Shown here: in pieces, positions 4,649 to 62,692 of the stretch
Numbering within the stretch: the first letter of the stretch is position 1
How the letters are laid out: every line of letters begins with the position of its first letter
NCBI GenBank assembly: GCA_902593795.1
Contig: CACJJR010000003.1
Span: 89,837-153,836 of the forward strand
DNA length: 64,000 nucleotides
Origin: an uncultured Candidatus Actinomarina sp.
GTDB taxonomy: Bacteria; Actinomycetota; Acidimicrobiia; Actinomarinales; Actinomarinaceae
Reading direction: 5' to 3'
The notes under the pieces: generated by a model
Told to the model about the DNA's origin: nothing
What the model saw: only the letters and a program-made list of their open reading frames with translations
The model's database searches: none
Program-made: the position numbers and the translations under genes

Positions 4649-4747
4649 ATGAAATTAAATAACACATACTTTTACTTTAGTGAGCACATATAAGTTGCCC
4701 TAAAGTGTGTATTGTGAAATCGGGCAAAAGCCCGATTTTTTTATTTT
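4649..4747 (+). promoter_or_regulatory. candidate transcription attenuator: leader peptide MKLNNTYFYFSEHI (4649-4693) plus alternative hairpins and terminator
   Basis: The mini-ORF ATG AAA TTA AAT AAC ACA TAC TTT TAC TTT AGT GAG CAC ATA TAA carries tandem Tyr/Phe codons. Region 1 ACTTTAG (4674-4680) pairs with CTAAAGT (4700-4706). TTGCCC (4695-4700) pairs with GGGCAA (4722-4727), which overlaps the 5-prime arm of the terminator. Confidence 0.55.
4717..4747 (+). terminator. rho-independent terminator (attenuator terminator and/or aroH terminator)
   Basis: Stem AAATCGGGC / GCCCGATTT with an AAAA loop (4717-4738), followed by TTTTTTTATTTT. It lies immediately before the GAGGAGG SD of the DAHP synthase gene. 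Confidence 0.85.
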
Positions 4748-4758
4748 GAGGAGGAAAA

Positions 4759-5772
4759 TTGATAATAGTAATGAAAGAGTCTCATACTGAAGAAGATATT
4801 GAGAAGGTAAAAGAAAAGGCAATACAGCAGGGACATGAACCACTAGTCATATTTGGCGTGGAACGAAGCGTTGTAGCAGTGAGTGGTAAAGTAAATGATG
4901 ACCATCGTGCTGTGATGAAACTTTTACCAAATGTAAGTCGAGTAATTCCAGTTGGAAAACCGTACAAACTTGCAAGCAAAAACTACAAAAAAGAAAATTC
5001 AGTCATTCAAATACAAAACCTTAAGATTGGTGGTGATGAAATTGCAATTATTGCTGGTCCAGATAGTGCTGAAACACAAGAACAGACAATCGAAACTGCA
5101 ATGGCTGCAAAGGAAGCAGGATCAAATGGTTTGAGAGGCGGCGCATTTAAACCAAGAACCTCACCATACAGTTTCCAGGGATTGGGCGAAGATGGATTAA
5201 AAATGCTGAAAGAGGCCTCTGAAATTACTTCATTACCGCTATTTAGTGAAATTATGGATGCTCAACATTTATCAATGATGGAAAAATATGTTGATGTTTT
5301 ACAAGTTGGTGCAAGAAACATGCAGAATTTTAAACTCCTCGAAGCTGTTGGTGAATCAAAGTTACCGGTTTTGTTAAAACGAGGATTGTCTGCAACCTTG
5401 GACGAGCTACTACTTGCAAGTGAATACATCCTATCAAGAGGCAATGAAAATGTCATGTTGTGTGAAAGAGGTATTAGAACCTATGAGACCGCCACAAGGA
5501 ATACATTTGATATAAATGCTATTCCTTTTTTGAAGCAGAACAGTCATTTGCCTGTAATAGCTGATCCTAGTCATGCAACTGGTGACAATACTTTAGTTGA
5601 GCCAGTTGCTTTAGCAGCTATAGCTGCTGGTGCTGATGGATTATTAATTGAAATCCACCCTAGGCCGGAGGAAGCTTTATGTGATGGGCCACAAGCATTA
5701 CTTCCAAGCGAACTAGAGGTTTTAATAAATAAAGCATCAATTGTTGCAAAGGCGGTTGGAAGGTCACTTTAA
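4759..5772 (+). CDS. aroF: 3-deoxy-7-phosphoheptulonate (DAHP) synthase, type I-beta with N-terminal ferredoxin-like regulatory domain
   Basis: 337 aa. The N-terminus MIIVMKESHTEEDIEKV resembles the Thermotoga-type DAHPS regulatory domain, and the KDO8P/DAHPS barrel motifs are present (RGGAFKPRTSPYSFQG, VGARNMQN, ADPSHATG). TTG start is 4 nt after GAGGAGG. Confidence 0.88.
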   Translation: MIIVMKESHTEEDIEKVKEKAIQQGHEPLVIFGVERSVVAVSGKVNDDHRAVMKLLPNVSRVIPVGKPYKLASKNYKKENSVIQIQNLKIGGDEIAIIAGPDSAETQEQTIETAMAAKEAGSNGLRGGAFKPRTSPYSFQGLGEDGLKMLKEASEITSLPLFSEIMDAQHLSMMEKYVDVLQVGARNMQNFKLLEAVGESKLPVLLKRGLSATLDELLLASEYILSRGNENVMLCERGIRTYETATRNTFDINAIPFLKQNSHLPVIADPSHATGDNTLVEPVALAAIAAGADGLLIEIHPRPEEALCDGPQALLPSELEVLINKASIVAKAVGRSL

Positions 5773-6608
5773 TGTTAAAAACAATTCATATTATTGGTCT
5801 TGGTTTAATGGGAACAAATTTGGGAATCAAATTAGTAAACAGTGGCTTTGAAGTAAGTGGGTCTGATGTTTTAGAAGAAAATGTTAGGCGGGCAAAAGAG
5901 CTCTCGGCTATATCATTGGATCATGATGAGTCTATAGAGTATGATCTTATAGTTTTGGCTATTCCAATTAATGAAATTTTAAATTATTTTGATTCAGAAC
6001 CATCTTTGAAGTCAAGAGCAATTGTTGACTTAGGAGGTACAAAAGATCTTATCTGTAAAAAAATGGATACATCTACTATTCCTGCAATAGGAGGACATCC
6101 ACTATGCGGTATCGCAGACAATAGTACGTGGGAACCAACTCCTGAAATGTACGAAGGAGCTCCATTTTTACTATGTGAAACAAGATCAACTGATGAGCAA
6201 AGCAAGGCAGTAGTTACAGAATTTATAAAAGCTATTGAATCTAGTGAGATATGGATTGATCAATCAAAACACGATGAGTTAATTTCTTTGACAAGTCACT
6301 TGCCGCATATTCTAAGTTCTGCTTTAGTTTCACTTGCTATGAAAGAGCAAGATTTAAATGAATTGATAAATTTAGCCTCTGGAGGTTTTGATGGAGCTAC
6401 TCGTCTATCTAGGACTTCACCAAATATGATTTCTGATATGTATCTAACAAATGTTGACAATGTAAAAGATTTAATTAATAAATTAATATCGGAACTTCAA
6501 CAAATTCAAAAAATTAGTGACGAGAAAATTATGTTAGGTTATTTGTCAGATACCGTTGATTGGCGCAGGGCCTTGGCAGAAAAGTTTGGAGAAAGAGACC
6601 TCACATAA
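5772..6608 (+). CDS. tyrA: prephenate (or arogenate) dehydrogenase
   Basis: 278 aa with an N-terminal Rossmann motif (IGLGLMG) and the GGHPLCG and TSHLPHILS motifs. TAATG overlaps at both ends. Confidence 0.85.
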   Translation: MLKTIHIIGLGLMGTNLGIKLVNSGFEVSGSDVLEENVRRAKELSAISLDHDESIEYDLIVLAIPINEILNYFDSEPSLKSRAIVDLGGTKDLICKKMDTSTIPAIGGHPLCGIADNSTWEPTPEMYEGAPFLLCETRSTDEQSKAVVTEFIKAIESSEIWIDQSKHDELISLTSHLPHILSSALVSLAMKEQDLNELINLASGGFDGATRLSRTSPNMISDMYLTNVDNVKDLINKLISELQQIQKISDEKIMLGYLSDTVDWRRALAEKFGERDLT

Positions 6609-60362: not shown

Positions 60363-61044
60363 AAATAAAATTTATTTACTTGTTGCTTTCCTTATATTCT
60401 CAGCTTGTGAAATTAAATGGGATATGAACGTTGAATTTAATGAAGATTTTTCTGGAAAGTATTCGATTAAATTATTAATTAATGAAGAATTACAGTTGTA
60501 TGCACTTGATATAGGTGAAGAGTCATCTATTGGAAGTCTTAACGACATTATTACCGAATTACCAGATGGATTTGGCTCTAGTATATTTCAAGAGGATGCA
60601 TATCTTGGAATACTTGTTCGTAATAATTTTGCAAATATAACTGAACTAGAAGAACAATTTGAACTACTAAAATCTAACGAAAATACAGCTTTATTATTAT
60701 TACCAATCGAAGATATAGAATTTCAAAACAATGATGAAGAGTTTAGGGTTTATGGATCTTTTGGTGAGCTCTTTGATACTGAAAACGAAATAATTAATCA
60801 ATCAGGCTATGACAATGTTTTTGATGGAAATCTCGGGTTTAAAGTTCCTGGGGATATTACTAAACCTAATGTTGACGACATTATTGAGAACACGATAATA
60901 TTTGAAGCTGATGGAGTAACTAGCAAAACTTTTGAACTTATATCAGAGAATAATAAACCACTAAATCCTCAAAGTATTGCTGTAGCTTTTGTAGTTTTAA
61001 TAGCAGTATATTTTTTTGTTAGACAATTAAGAAAAACAAAGTAA
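60352..61044 (+). CDS. hypothetical lipoprotein with C-terminal TM anchor
   Basis: 230 aa with lipobox-like LIFSACE and a C-terminal helix IAVAFVVLIAVYFFV followed by RQLRKTK. I recognise no family. Confidence 0.5.
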   Translation: MKYKNKIYLLVAFLIFSACEIKWDMNVEFNEDFSGKYSIKLLINEELQLYALDIGEESSIGSLNDIITELPDGFGSSIFQEDAYLGILVRNNFANITELEEQFELLKSNENTALLLLPIEDIEFQNNDEEFRVYGSFGELFDTENEIINQSGYDNVFDGNLGFKVPGDITKPNVDDIIENTIIFEADGVTSKTFELISENNKPLNPQSIAVAFVVLIAVYFFVRQLRKTK

Positions 61045-61054
61045 CATTGTCACA

Positions 61055-61130
61055 ATGAAAAAAATTATAATTATTATTTAGGAGCAACGTTTAAAACGTT
61101 GTTGCCCTTGCATTGCAAGGGTTTTTTTTT
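61055..61130 (+). promoter_or_regulatory. candidate isoleucine attenuator: leader peptide MKKIIIII (61055-61081) + hairpin + terminator
   Basis: The mini-ORF is ATG AAA AAA ATT ATA ATT ATT ATT TAG. Hairpin AGCAACGT / ACGTTGTT (61083-61103) or GGAGCAA / TTGCCCT overlaps the 5-prime arm of terminator CCCTTG-CATTG-CAAGGG-T9. Confidence 0.5.
61105..61130 (+). terminator. rho-independent terminator 5 nt upstream of cimA start
   Basis: Stem CCCTTG / CAAGGG (61105-61110 / 61116-61121) with a 5-nt loop, followed by nine T (61122-61130). Confidence 0.8.
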
Positions 61131-61135
61131 GGATT

Positions 61136-62692
61136 ATGAAAATAGATATATTTGATACAACATTAAGAGATGGCTTCCAGCAGGAAGGGATTTCCCCATC
61201 TGTAAAAGACAAGATTGCAATTGCAAAATTAATTGATGATTTAGGGGTAGCTTATATTGAAGGTGGTTGGCCAGGAGCATCTCCAAAAGAGGAAGAATTC
61301 TTTGAAACTGCAAAAAGCGAACTAAATTTAAAAAATGCAAAACTTGTAAGTTTTGGTTCAACTAGAAAACTTGATTTGTCTGCAGAAGATGATCCCCAAG
61401 TTAAGGCTCTAGTTGATTCAGGTACGGATTATGTATGTATTGTTGGAAAGTCTTCAAAATTACATATAACCAAGGCTTTACAAACAGATGTTGAAAGTGC
61501 AATTGATATGGCTGTAGATACAATTTTATATCTAAAATCTAAAGGCAAAAAAGTATTTTTCGATGCTGAACATTTTTTTGATGGATATAAAGAAGATTCA
61601 GTAACAAGTTTAAAGATACTTGAAGCTGTTATTTCAGCTGGGACAGATTGTTTTATATTTTGTGATACTAATGGAGGAACTTTACCTGAGGAAGTTAGAA
61701 AAGTTCTTACTGAAATTATAGACAAATATCCAGAAACAAAGTTTGGTGTTCATTTTCAGAATGATAATGGCTGTGCTGTTGTGAATTCAATGGTAGCAGT
61801 AGACCTTGGAGTTGATCATGTTCAAGGAACTATTAACGGATATGGTGAAAGAACTGGAAATGCTGATCTATGTACTCTTATCCCTAATTTATCTTTAAAA
61901 CAAGATTATGAAACTATACCTGTAGATTCACTTAAAAAATTAACACAAACTGCAAATCATATTGCAGAACTTGTAAATGTTTCTATAGATTCAAGACATC
62001 CATATGTTGGCTCATCAGCTTTTACTCATAAAGCAGGACTTCATGCATCAGGAATGGCTAAAGACAGTTCACTTTACGAGCATATTGATTCTGAAAAAGT
62101 TGGTAATTTTACAAGGACTACAGTTTCAGAATTAGCTGGTAGAGCAAGTGTTATTACTAAGTCAGAAGAATTTGGATTAAATTTTAATAATGAAGAGGCT
62201 AAGGAGCTTATTCAGCAAGTTCAAAATCTTGAGCATTTAGGTTTCCAATTTGAAGCAGCAGATGCTTCTTTATTTATTTTAATGAATTCAATTCAAGGTA
62301 TTAAACCAGAGTTTTTTCAATTTGAAAGTTTCAGGGTTTTCTCAGAGAGACGAAACTCAGAGAATGTTGTTTCTGAAGCAGTATGCAAAATAATGGTTAA
62401 AGACAACCGATATGTCAAGACTGGAGAAGGCGTAGGTCCTGTCGACGCACTTTCTAAAGCACTAAAGACAGCACTTGAAAATGATTACGAGAATATAAAC
62501 AACGTAAAGCTAATTGATTACAAAGTTAGAATAATCGATTCTTCCGATGGAACTGAAGCTAAAACCAGGGTATTGATTGAGTTTACAGATTCAAATAGAC
62601 AGTGGAGCACAATTGGAGTTCATGAAAATATTATAAATGCTTCTTGGAACGCTTTATGTGATGGATTCAATTACTATTTTATGACTACTTAG
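61136..62692 (+). CDS. cimA: (R)-citramalate synthase (LeuA/CimA family, CimA-type)
   Basis: 518 aa with IFDTTLRDGFQQEG, YIEGGWPGASPKEEEFF, DAEHFFDGYKED, CDTNGGTLP and a C-terminal LeuA-dimer regulatory domain. The length and motifs fit the CimA clade better than the LeuA clade. Confidence 0.75.
   Translation: MKIDIFDTTLRDGFQQEGISPSVKDKIAIAKLIDDLGVAYIEGGWPGASPKEEEFFETAKSELNLKNAKLVSFGSTRKLDLSAEDDPQVKALVDSGTDYVCIVGKSSKLHITKALQTDVESAIDMAVDTILYLKSKGKKVFFDAEHFFDGYKEDSVTSLKILEAVISAGTDCFIFCDTNGGTLPEEVRKVLTEIIDKYPETKFGVHFQNDNGCAVVNSMVAVDLGVDHVQGTINGYGERTGNADLCTLIPNLSLKQDYETIPVDSLKKLTQTANHIAELVNVSIDSRHPYVGSSAFTHKAGLHASGMAKDSSLYEHIDSEKVGNFTRTTVSELAGRASVITKSEEFGLNFNNEEAKELIQQVQNLEHLGFQFEAADASLFILMNSIQGIKPEFFQFESFRVFSERRNSENVVSEAVCKIMVKDNRYVKTGEGVGPVDALSKALKTALENDYENINNVKLIDYKVRIIDSSDGTEAKTRVLIEFTDSNRQWSTIGVHENIINASWNALCDGFNYYFMTT

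Follow-up and report, generated by a model that had tools for sequence, protein, structure and literature searches.

We analysed a stretch of 64,000 nt (the window) from contig CACJJR010000003.1, an AT-rich sequence (33% GC) from a relative of Candidatus Actinomarina, and found ahead of its citramalate synthase gene, cimA, a leader that is very probably a ribosome-mediated, isoleucine-responsive transcription attenuator. The leader consists of a promoter, an eight-codon open reading frame (ORF) ending in five Ile codons, a hairpin (H1) and an intrinsic terminator (H2). The explanation that we prefer overall, with a probability of roughly 0.55, is an Ile attenuator of cimA in which intact H1 would sterically block the adjacent terminator. 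Granted an Ile attenuator, we put the chance that H1 works by adjacency and not by base-pair competition at even or a little below. The layout of promoter, mini-ORF, H1 and terminator recurs in 96 related loci, from AT-rich Actinomarina to Acidimicrobiia with 60-73% GC (31-73% GC overall). The features of the window are the following.

61020-61025, + strand: -35-like hexamer TAGACA from a promoter scan, within the last codons of the upstream membrane/lipoprotein gene
61042-61047, + strand: -10-like hexamer TAACAT from the promoter scan, overlapping the upstream stop codon and ending 7 nt ahead of the leader ATG
61055-61081, + strand: leader ORF MKKIIIII, with ATG at 61055, AAA AAA, five Ile codons and TAG at 61079-61081
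61083-61103, + strand: hairpin H1, 9 bp with loop UAA, 1 nt past the stop codon; proposed ribosome-gated antiterminator
61104-61130, + strand: intrinsic terminator H2, stem-loop at 61104-61122 (8 bp, loop AUU), T run to 61130
61131-62692, + strand: cimA with a weak ribosome-binding site GGA (61131-61133), coding sequence 61136-62692, 518 aa

The leader in the window

The mini-ORF had been noticed in a first-pass annotation of the window, and its sequence is as described there. The Ile codons are ATT ATA ATT ATT ATT (61064-61078), and no Shine-Dalgarno sequence is present ahead of the ATG at 61055. H1 is formed by the arms AGCAACGUU/UAA/AACGUUGUU with a folding energy of -8.6 kcal/mol, and H2 by the arms GCCCUUGC/AUU/GCAAGGGU with -12.2 kcal/mol; H2 was also recovered by a terminator scan. 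The annotation had proposed two hairpins and both fold, but the first had been drawn at 61081-61106, which is wider than the folded helix. Its strong terminator with a T run ending 5 nt before the start of cimA was correct: the T run is followed by GGATT and then by the cimA ATG at 61136. The spacer between H1 and H2 is 0 nt in the window, and the 96-nt leader region has a folding z-score of -3.75 against shuffled sequences. The bases of cimA that resemble a Shine-Dalgarno sequence are limited to the GGA, and on a read-through RNA the refolded H2 would come to the edge of this ribosome-binding site. The minimum-energy fold also contains a pairing of the A-tract at 61058-61064 with the T run, but we rejected it as part of the element, as it is found in the MKKIIIII subgroup only and is absent from other relatives.

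Runs of at least five Ile codons are expected by chance 0.8 times per 64 kb when both strands are counted. The full motif (ATG, up to four codons, at least four Ile codons, stop) is expected 0.08 times in the window and was seen once, at the cimA leader; a scan of both strands of the window revealed no further leader of the Ile type. By itself, the window is only suggestive of a real leader, and it is the comparative data that settle the matter.

The regulated gene and its promoter

The ORF at 61136-62692 matched the citramalate synthase model TIGR00977 with 621 bits (cutoff 450), while the LeuA models gave 241-281 bits and stayed under their cutoffs. Homologues of the protein also carry the name citramalate synthase in Acidimicrobiia. 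The regulated gene is citramalate synthase, as had been assumed at first sight, and not LeuA.

The gene upstream encodes 230 aa with a signal-peptide and lipobox-like N-terminus and a C-terminal membrane helix, and it ends with TAA at 61042-61044; an NCBIfam search with this ORF gave no match. The putative cimA promoter (61017-61047) lies inside the end of this gene, with the -35 hexamer spanning the V-R-Q codons and the -10 hexamer overlapping the TAA. The string 'ttgttagacaa' is kept in those relatives that have the lipoprotein gene upstream, so these codons may be under double constraint.

Transcription would start at about 61054-61055, and the leader ORF would be leaderless or nearly so. 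The promoter is conserved as TAGACA-N16-TA(A/T)TAT in AT-rich relatives and as TTGACs-N17-CATACT in GC-rich ones, and it is retained even where the upstream gene is different. Among 59 distinct leaders, the distance from the -10 hexamer to the leader ATG is mostly 6-10 nt, and a Shine-Dalgarno sequence is absent. With the sole conserved promoter situated ahead of the leader and H2 directly before cimA, every cimA transcript would have to read through this terminator.

Conservation of the leader in Acidimicrobiia

The comparison set comprised 80 loci of species-representative genomes, 80 metagenome loci and four retrieved via exact protein look-up. The nearest relatives are single-cell genomes and metagenome-assembled genomes named Candidatus Actinomarina (L001 with 92% CimA identity, then L002 and L045), and the next nearest are GC-rich Acidimicrobiia with about 50% CimA identity. 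All 17 AT-rich loci with at least 75% CimA identity keep the in-frame Ile-rich mini-ORF, H1, H2 and a T9 run. The peptides of these close relatives include MKKIIIII, MQKIIIIV, MMNIIIII, MINFIIII and MKIIGIIIM. The leader is 81-96% identical to the window at the nucleotide level, compared with 49-59% at synonymous third positions of cimA, and it appears to be under purifying selection. The leader, H1, H2 and the promoter are also kept in loci where rdgB or another gene, and not the lipoprotein gene, stands upstream.

GC-rich Acidimicrobiia (60-73% GC) have leader ORFs at the equivalent place, e.g. MFIPDNTIIIE, MTARYDIIIIA and MNGPATSIIIII. Among 127 GC-rich loci, 52 have a run of at least three Ile codons at most 200 nt ahead of cimA, as against 0.39 in shuffles and 9 of 3302 other 200-nt blocks, which places the Ile run ahead of cimA about 130 times over chance in these genomes. 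A lack of conservation of the Ile codons, which the first-pass annotation had named as an outcome that would speak against its proposal, was not what we saw, and by these comparisons the mini-ORF is a real conserved Ile-codon leader and not a chance product.

Two loci, L071 (labelled Nitriliruptorales) and L151, have a different type of leader upstream of cimA. Their ORFs are longer and end in ...TIIIRPLP or ...AIIIIRPLP, and they are associated with a large GC-rich structure with no clear T run. The endings are reminiscent of the Corynebacterium glutamicum ilvB leader, which ends in ...RRLP.

Folding and covariation of the two hairpins

Alignment of all leaders with MAFFT and RNAalifold misaligned H1 owing to the variable loop lengths, and we instead built a covariance model from a hand-structured seed of 11 leaders, all of them GC-rich. 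The model gave full-length matches in the 96 distinct loci mentioned above. With filters off, positions 61067-61128 ranked first over both strands of the window.

The first-pass annotation had proposed folding and covariation analysis across relatives, and this came out in favour of both hairpins. In the model-guided alignment, 19 of 20 stem pairs have compensatory changes (10/10 in H1, helices 1 and 2, and 9/10 in H2), and 96.3% of cells are paired, compared with 78% in shuffles and 36-58% with slid partners; these counts lean toward the structure, as the alignment was fitted to it. Independent of the alignment is the finding that the 59 leaders contain 58 distinct H1 sequences, which fold at the same place, with z below -2 in 57 of 59. 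The H1 energies range from -8 to -27 kcal/mol across leaders. We also considered H1 as a DNA operator, but its G.U pairs (51 of 615) together with the covariation favour an RNA structure. H2 is followed by a T-rich tract even in genomes with 60-73% GC.

In searches of the window and 20 loci with curated Rfam models, only tRNAs passed the gathering scores. Permissive Rfam scans returned only small-RNA matches at chance level, which took in the terminator, and no leader, riboswitch or T-box family.

Geometry of the leader

The leader peptides are 7-14 residues long, and the 3-5 Ile codons near the end are their only conserved feature. Between the Ile run and the stop there are 0-2 codons, exactly one in 48 of 64 leaders. 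In the same 64 leaders the first position of H1 falls between -3 and +2 nt relative to the end of the stop codon, and the stop is often part of the hairpin. This agrees with the earlier suggestion that a ribosome at the stop codon would melt H1. The spacer between H1 and H2 is 0-6 nt, and at most 4 nt in 61 of 63 relatives; it is 0 nt in the AT-rich group and amounts to 1-6 unpaired nt in GC-rich relatives. The length of the leader RNA is 73-105 nt across the family. Loop sizes differ between leaders, as do the N-terminal length of the peptide and the stretch separating the T run from the gene start (4-53 nt).

From the first nucleotide of the last Ile codon to the first pair of H1 there are 5-11 nt, with a mode of 7-8. 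Counted from the first nucleotide of the P-site codon, a duplex is able to persist to within about 11 nt, or about 7 nt when counted from the first nucleotide of the A-site codon. It follows from this geometry and reach that a ribosome awaiting Ile-tRNA would abut H1 but need not open it, whichever codon of the run it occupies, and it would open H1 on moving one or two codons further, to the stop.

Two features of codon usage in the GC-rich leaders were observed besides. ATT makes up 29% of the leader Ile codons (e.g. L004:2917-2925) compared with 8% in the cimA coding sequence, and it is confined to the last two positions of the run (41 of 88, against 0 of 55 at earlier positions), the typical pattern being ATC ATT ATC. 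Slower wobble decoding and avoidance of a perfect repeat are both possible reasons for this bias. Moreover, runs of Thr codons often stand directly before the Ile run of GC-rich cimA leaders (TTTIII, TTTTTIII, TTTTIIII; e.g. L016, L104 and L115), and Thr accounts for 15% of the last six residues. The Escherichia coli thr leader mixes Thr and Ile codons, and the Thr runs could represent a second signal or merely an ACC-rich composition.

Genes behind the leader

The element stands directly ahead of cimA in 65 loci. In 29 loci it lies 0.9-2.1 kb upstream of cimA, ahead of an operon that ends with this gene:

L059, 855-962: leader of leuB-ilvE-cimA
L138, 447-531: leader of ilvE-cimA
L064, 1776-1883: leader of leuB-cimA
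26 other loci: further operon leaders

The operon leaders mix Val with Ile codons (VIVI, VVII, IVVI). Among the last six leader residues, Ile makes up 53% and Val 2% in leaders of cimA only, as compared with 40% and 21% where leuB and/or ilvE precede cimA in the operon. A second copy of the cassette was found at L068:6430-6600 (element at 6469-6570), with the promoter TTGACA-N17-CATACT, the leader MTNTPLTTVLLIT (V-L-L-I), H1 and H2; the same contig also has a cimA leader, MTEDTLLTTIIIR. The gene behind this second copy looks like the large subunit of acetolactate synthase (ilvB), as judged by eye from its N-terminus. The codon content of the leader tracks the regulated genes, so the element is best described as a modular cassette with codons apparently tuned to the regulated pathway. 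The expectation that other ilv/leu genes might carry similar leaders holds for the leuB/ilvE operons of relatives and for ilvB of L068, and not for the window, where the cimA leader is alone of its type.

H1 and H2 in modelled folds

The first-pass annotation had suggested that the 3' arm of H1 overlaps the 5' arm of the terminator, so that the two compete. In the window, H1 and H2 coexist both in the minimum-energy fold and in the ensemble. Standing side by side they have -20.8 kcal/mol, compared with -15.4 kcal/mol for an extended H1 with a shortened H2, a difference of 5.4 kcal/mol, and the overlap pairs, GG at 61081-61082 with CC at 61105-61106 across a bulged G, have an equilibrium probability of about 0.002. 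Before the 3' arm of H2 exists, extended H1 is the better fold (-10.8 vs -8.6 kcal/mol), and it is only at that stage that the 2-bp extension is worth about 2 kcal/mol.

We folded about 60 leaders with the footprint of a ribosome placed on the first or last Ile codon or on the stop, as well as transcripts cut before the 3' arm of H2. H2 remained in the minimum-energy fold at every modelled ribosome position. The cut transcripts revealed no conserved partner for the 5' arm of H2: no nucleotide of this arm was paired before the 3' arm appeared in 33 of 59 leaders, and elsewhere the partners were local and not H1. A classical 2:3 antiterminator was rejected, as neither the footprint folds nor the cut transcripts contained a conserved alternative to H2. 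According to these models, the family lacks an overlapping antiterminator, and the mutually exclusive structures of classical attenuation are not seen. Of the original proposal of an Ile-sensing attenuator, the conserved Ile-codon leader and terminator stand, while the switch through shared nucleotides is not supported.

We also considered, and rejected, frameshifting at hungry codons as a way for the ribosome to pass the terminator. No frame stays open consistently: the window has a closed +1 frame, and L001, L081, L083 and L088 have a closed -1 frame.

A possible mechanism

As no base-pair competition was found, the ribosome can change only whether H1 is folded. A ribosome is likeliest to stall at the first hungry codon, a position that leaves H1 intact, and read-through has to be the outcome of starvation; the switch would thus be ON with H1 intact and OFF with H1 melted. 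Both the Ile response and the steric action of H1, which we call 'tug-of-war' after the riboswitches discussed below, are what we infer from the sequences.

The mechanism would proceed as follows. Transcription would begin at or beside the ATG of the eight-codon leaderless ORF, and all transcripts would encounter H2, 5 nt ahead of cimA. H1 would be situated between the leader stop codon and H2 and touch the latter. When Ile-tRNA is scarce, the ribosome would wait at the Ile codons, which are placed so that its front edge would merely abut H1. The waiting ribosome would leave H1 intact, the adjacent terminator would be sterically blocked, and the polymerase would read into cimA. One may speculate that a ribosome abutting the base of H1 adds bulk. 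When Ile-tRNA is plentiful, the ribosome would reach the stop codon and unwind H1; the 3' arm of the melted hairpin would then be a single-stranded spacer, H2 would fold, and transcription would end after about 76 nt. The tight spacer of 0-6 nt, in a leader that otherwise varies freely, is what a tug-of-war mechanism predicts.

We tentatively extend this to the whole set. The leaders ahead of cimA, ilvB and the leuB/ilvE-cimA operons across Acidimicrobiia could be natural ribosome-gated tug-of-war attenuators, in which the ribosome, and not a ligand, might set whether a non-overlapping hairpin blocks termination sterically in the exit channel of the polymerase. We regard this generalisation as possible, with the odds somewhat against it.

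Weighing the preferred reading and its alternatives

Several points weigh against an Ile attenuator with a steric H1. Its function, from the site where transcription would begin to the putative terminated RNA of 76 nt and the response to Ile, is deduced from sequence. Assembled metatranscriptome contigs at 61006-61271 and 61071-61250 span the leader and the terminator into cimA, and they may represent read-through RNA or DNA carry-over; contigs of the same kind from a Microthrix-like relative span the element and are silent on RNA ends. H2 is about as stable as H1, with -10.4 vs -8.1 kcal/mol in AT-rich leaders and -16.8 vs -19.1 kcal/mol in GC-rich ones. If H1 acts by adjacency, transcripts of the upstream operon with an untranslated leader would have H1 intact and would leak into cimA. 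The match of the covariance model in the window is borderline (15 bits, E of about 0.06). Three AT-rich relatives with 64-71% CimA identity (L161, L162 and L163) have no leader, H1 or H2, and their cimA follows 0-38 nt behind another gene (nadC-like, gltX-like or unknown); the leader was lost or never present there, and the element is dispensable in some lineages. Finally, in the work on tug-of-war riboswitches a plain upstream hairpin was clearly effective only on the weakest terminator tested (bioRxiv 10.64898/2026.06.17.733018).

The alternative that survives best, though we consider it unlikely, is an Ile attenuator in which H1 is a pause hairpin of the polymerase and NusG, NusA or a contact between ribosome and polymerase decides on read-through. 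The position of H1 would suit a hairpin pause inside H2, about 10-12 nt further downstream. NusG is described as aiding mycobacterial termination (PMC3993855), and host- and NusG-dependent effects appear in the same tug-of-war preprint. However, a pause alone leaves the read-through unexplained, no conserved sequence was found beyond the stems, and a pure pause role would not require so short a spacer between H1 and H2.

We give still less credit to an Ile attenuator with an extended H1, in which the G of the stop codon and G61082 pair with C61105/C61106, or AGG with CCU, and compete kinetically for the 5' arm of H2. Apart from the gain before the 3' arm exists, it could draw on the partial transcript of L045, which folds AAGG:CCUU over 4 nt of the H2 arm, and on the absence of a spacer in the AT-rich group. 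It has to contend with the cost and the low probability of the extension in the full transcript, with the majority of leaders in which the H2 arm has no early partner, and with the unpaired nucleotides between the hairpins of GC-rich relatives, where no overlap is conserved; besides, the displacement of 2-3 bp should be fast.

It is very improbable that the leader acts mainly post-transcriptionally, with H2 controlling translation or mRNA stability or with a short RNA or peptide acting in trans. In the window, the T run ends so near the ATG that refolded H2 would crowd the ribosome-binding site, and trans-acting attenuator RNAs and peptides have been described from Sinorhizobium, but the distance between terminator and start codon is 4-53 nt in relatives, so occlusion of the site is not conserved, and neither is the peptide sequence apart from the Ile run. 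Hardly credible at all is the scenario, raised already in the first-pass annotation, that the two hairpins do no more than terminate the upstream rph-rdgB-lipoprotein operon, with an Ile mini-ORF that arose by chance in AT-rich DNA: the upstream gene has no other terminator and five-Ile runs are expected 0.8 times per window, but promoter, ORF, H1 and H2 persist where another gene or none stands upstream and in GC-rich genomes where the Ile runs are far over-represented, and the 5 nt between the T run and the cimA ATG leave no room for a separate promoter.

A second candidate leader in the window

A second candidate for a leader-peptide attenuator was noticed on the + strand at 4649-4742, upstream of the gene at 4759-5772, which encodes a 3-deoxy-D-arabino-heptulosonate 7-phosphate (DAHP) synthase (NF006421, 458 bits). 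Its ORF, from the ATG at 4649 to the TAA at 4693, encodes MKLNNTYFYFSEHI with Tyr-Phe-Tyr-Phe. A hairpin takes in the Tyr-Phe codons and is followed by the terminator UCGGGC/AAAA/GCCCGA with T7. UUGCCC (4695-4700) is able to pair with GGGCAA (4722-4727) of the 5' arm of the terminator, which would represent a classical overlapping antiterminator, in contrast to the cimA leader.

Comparison with known attenuators

We found no leader peptide, attenuator or T-box for citramalate synthase in Rfam or in the full-text-searchable literature, in line with the earlier impression that the cimA leader is new, and cimA is not among the known attenuated genes. With it, the entry enzyme of the pyruvate route to isoleucine would join the genes under leader-peptide attenuation, in one of the most abundant groups of marine bacteria and in the class Acidimicrobiia. 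The family is compact and well sampled, and its codons track the genes, with pure Ile for cimA, Ile/Val for leuB and/or ilvE operons and V-L-L-I for ilvB.

The enterobacterial attenuators (trp, his, thr, ilvGMEDA, ilvBN, leu) are built of four segments; their 2:3 antiterminator shares many nucleotides with the terminator, a Shine-Dalgarno sequence leads the ORF, and the leaders are about 140-200 nt long. The cimA leader resembles them in its short ORF with tandem codons for the end product and its Rho-independent terminator before a biosynthetic gene, and here too the position of the ribosome would choose between termination and read-through. It differs in the shorter RNA of 73-105 nt, in the putatively leaderless ORF and in the two hairpins that do not overlap. 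As an overlapping antiterminator was looked for and not found, the cimA element is set apart from the classical family.

The actinobacterial ilvB leaders, subject of a comparative study by Seliverstov et al. 2005 (PMC1262725), are closer. In the Mycobacterium tuberculosis ilvB1 leader, an attenuator tested in 2026, a ribosome at the stop codon masks the antiterminator, a change of LVVI to AAAA abolishes induction, and the end of the terminated RNA lies about 126 nt from the start (PMC13236596). The C. glutamicum ilvBNC attenuator has been modelled with overlapping hairpins (PMC11857589), and the ilvB-II, ilvB-OMG and ilvB motifs have been reinterpreted as upstream ORFs (PMC10272879). The cimA leader shares with these a short ORF of branched-chain codons, a hairpin and a U-tract terminator, and an ilvB copy of its design exists in L068; as in the logic of ilvB1, H1 is placed for occlusion by a ribosome at the stop codon. 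However, the ilvB leaders are described with mutually exclusive or overlapping hairpins, or with an ORF overlapping the terminator, whereas the hairpins of the cimA leader do not overlap, its codons are purely Ile, and it stands before cimA alone or before an operon with leuB and/or ilvE ahead of cimA.

Tug-of-war riboswitches were described in a June 2026 preprint by Bushhouse, Fu and Lucks (bioRxiv 10.64898/2026.06.17.733018). A stable structure located 0-4 nt upstream of a terminator and not overlapping it favours read-through, and an unstable structure or a long spacer leads to termination; the effect is ascribed to steric competition for the exit channel of the polymerase. About 10% of natural ZTP riboswitches use this mechanism, mostly in Gram-positive bacteria. 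The spacing of H1 from its terminator (0 nt in the window, 0-6 nt in relatives) and the lack of shared sequence match this geometry. The riboswitches use a ligand-bound aptamer, whereas the cimA leader has a plain hairpin with a state that would be set by the ribosome, and the preprint makes no mention of leader peptides.

The polycysteine leaderless short ORFs of mycobacteria (Canestrari et al. 2020), which act by translation attenuation as summarised in PMC13236596, are also similar. From that summary, they share with the cimA leader a short ORF, leaderless in mycobacteria and putatively so ahead of cimA, a codon run for one amino acid, downstream biosynthetic genes and occurrence in Actinobacteria, and differ from it in that the cimA leader has a canonical intrinsic terminator.

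The cimA leader thus has an architecture without the overlapping antiterminator that defines classical attenuators, and its geometry is that of steric tug-of-war antitermination. If our preferred reading is true, the position of the ribosome would be a second natural input to the tug-of-war mechanism, and the element would represent a distinct minimal mechanism of attenuation on a leaderless RNA of about 75-105 nt. It could then explain long-noted actinobacterial leaders that have terminators but 'missing' antiterminators, and its design rule (Ile run, 0-2 codons, stop, hairpin, spacer of at most 6 nt, terminator) would be usable to find or build minimal amino-acid sensors. The cimA element is of the same kind as the leader-peptide attenuators, and it differs from them by its target gene, its pure-Ile codons and its non-overlapping design of two hairpins on an RNA of about 76 nt.

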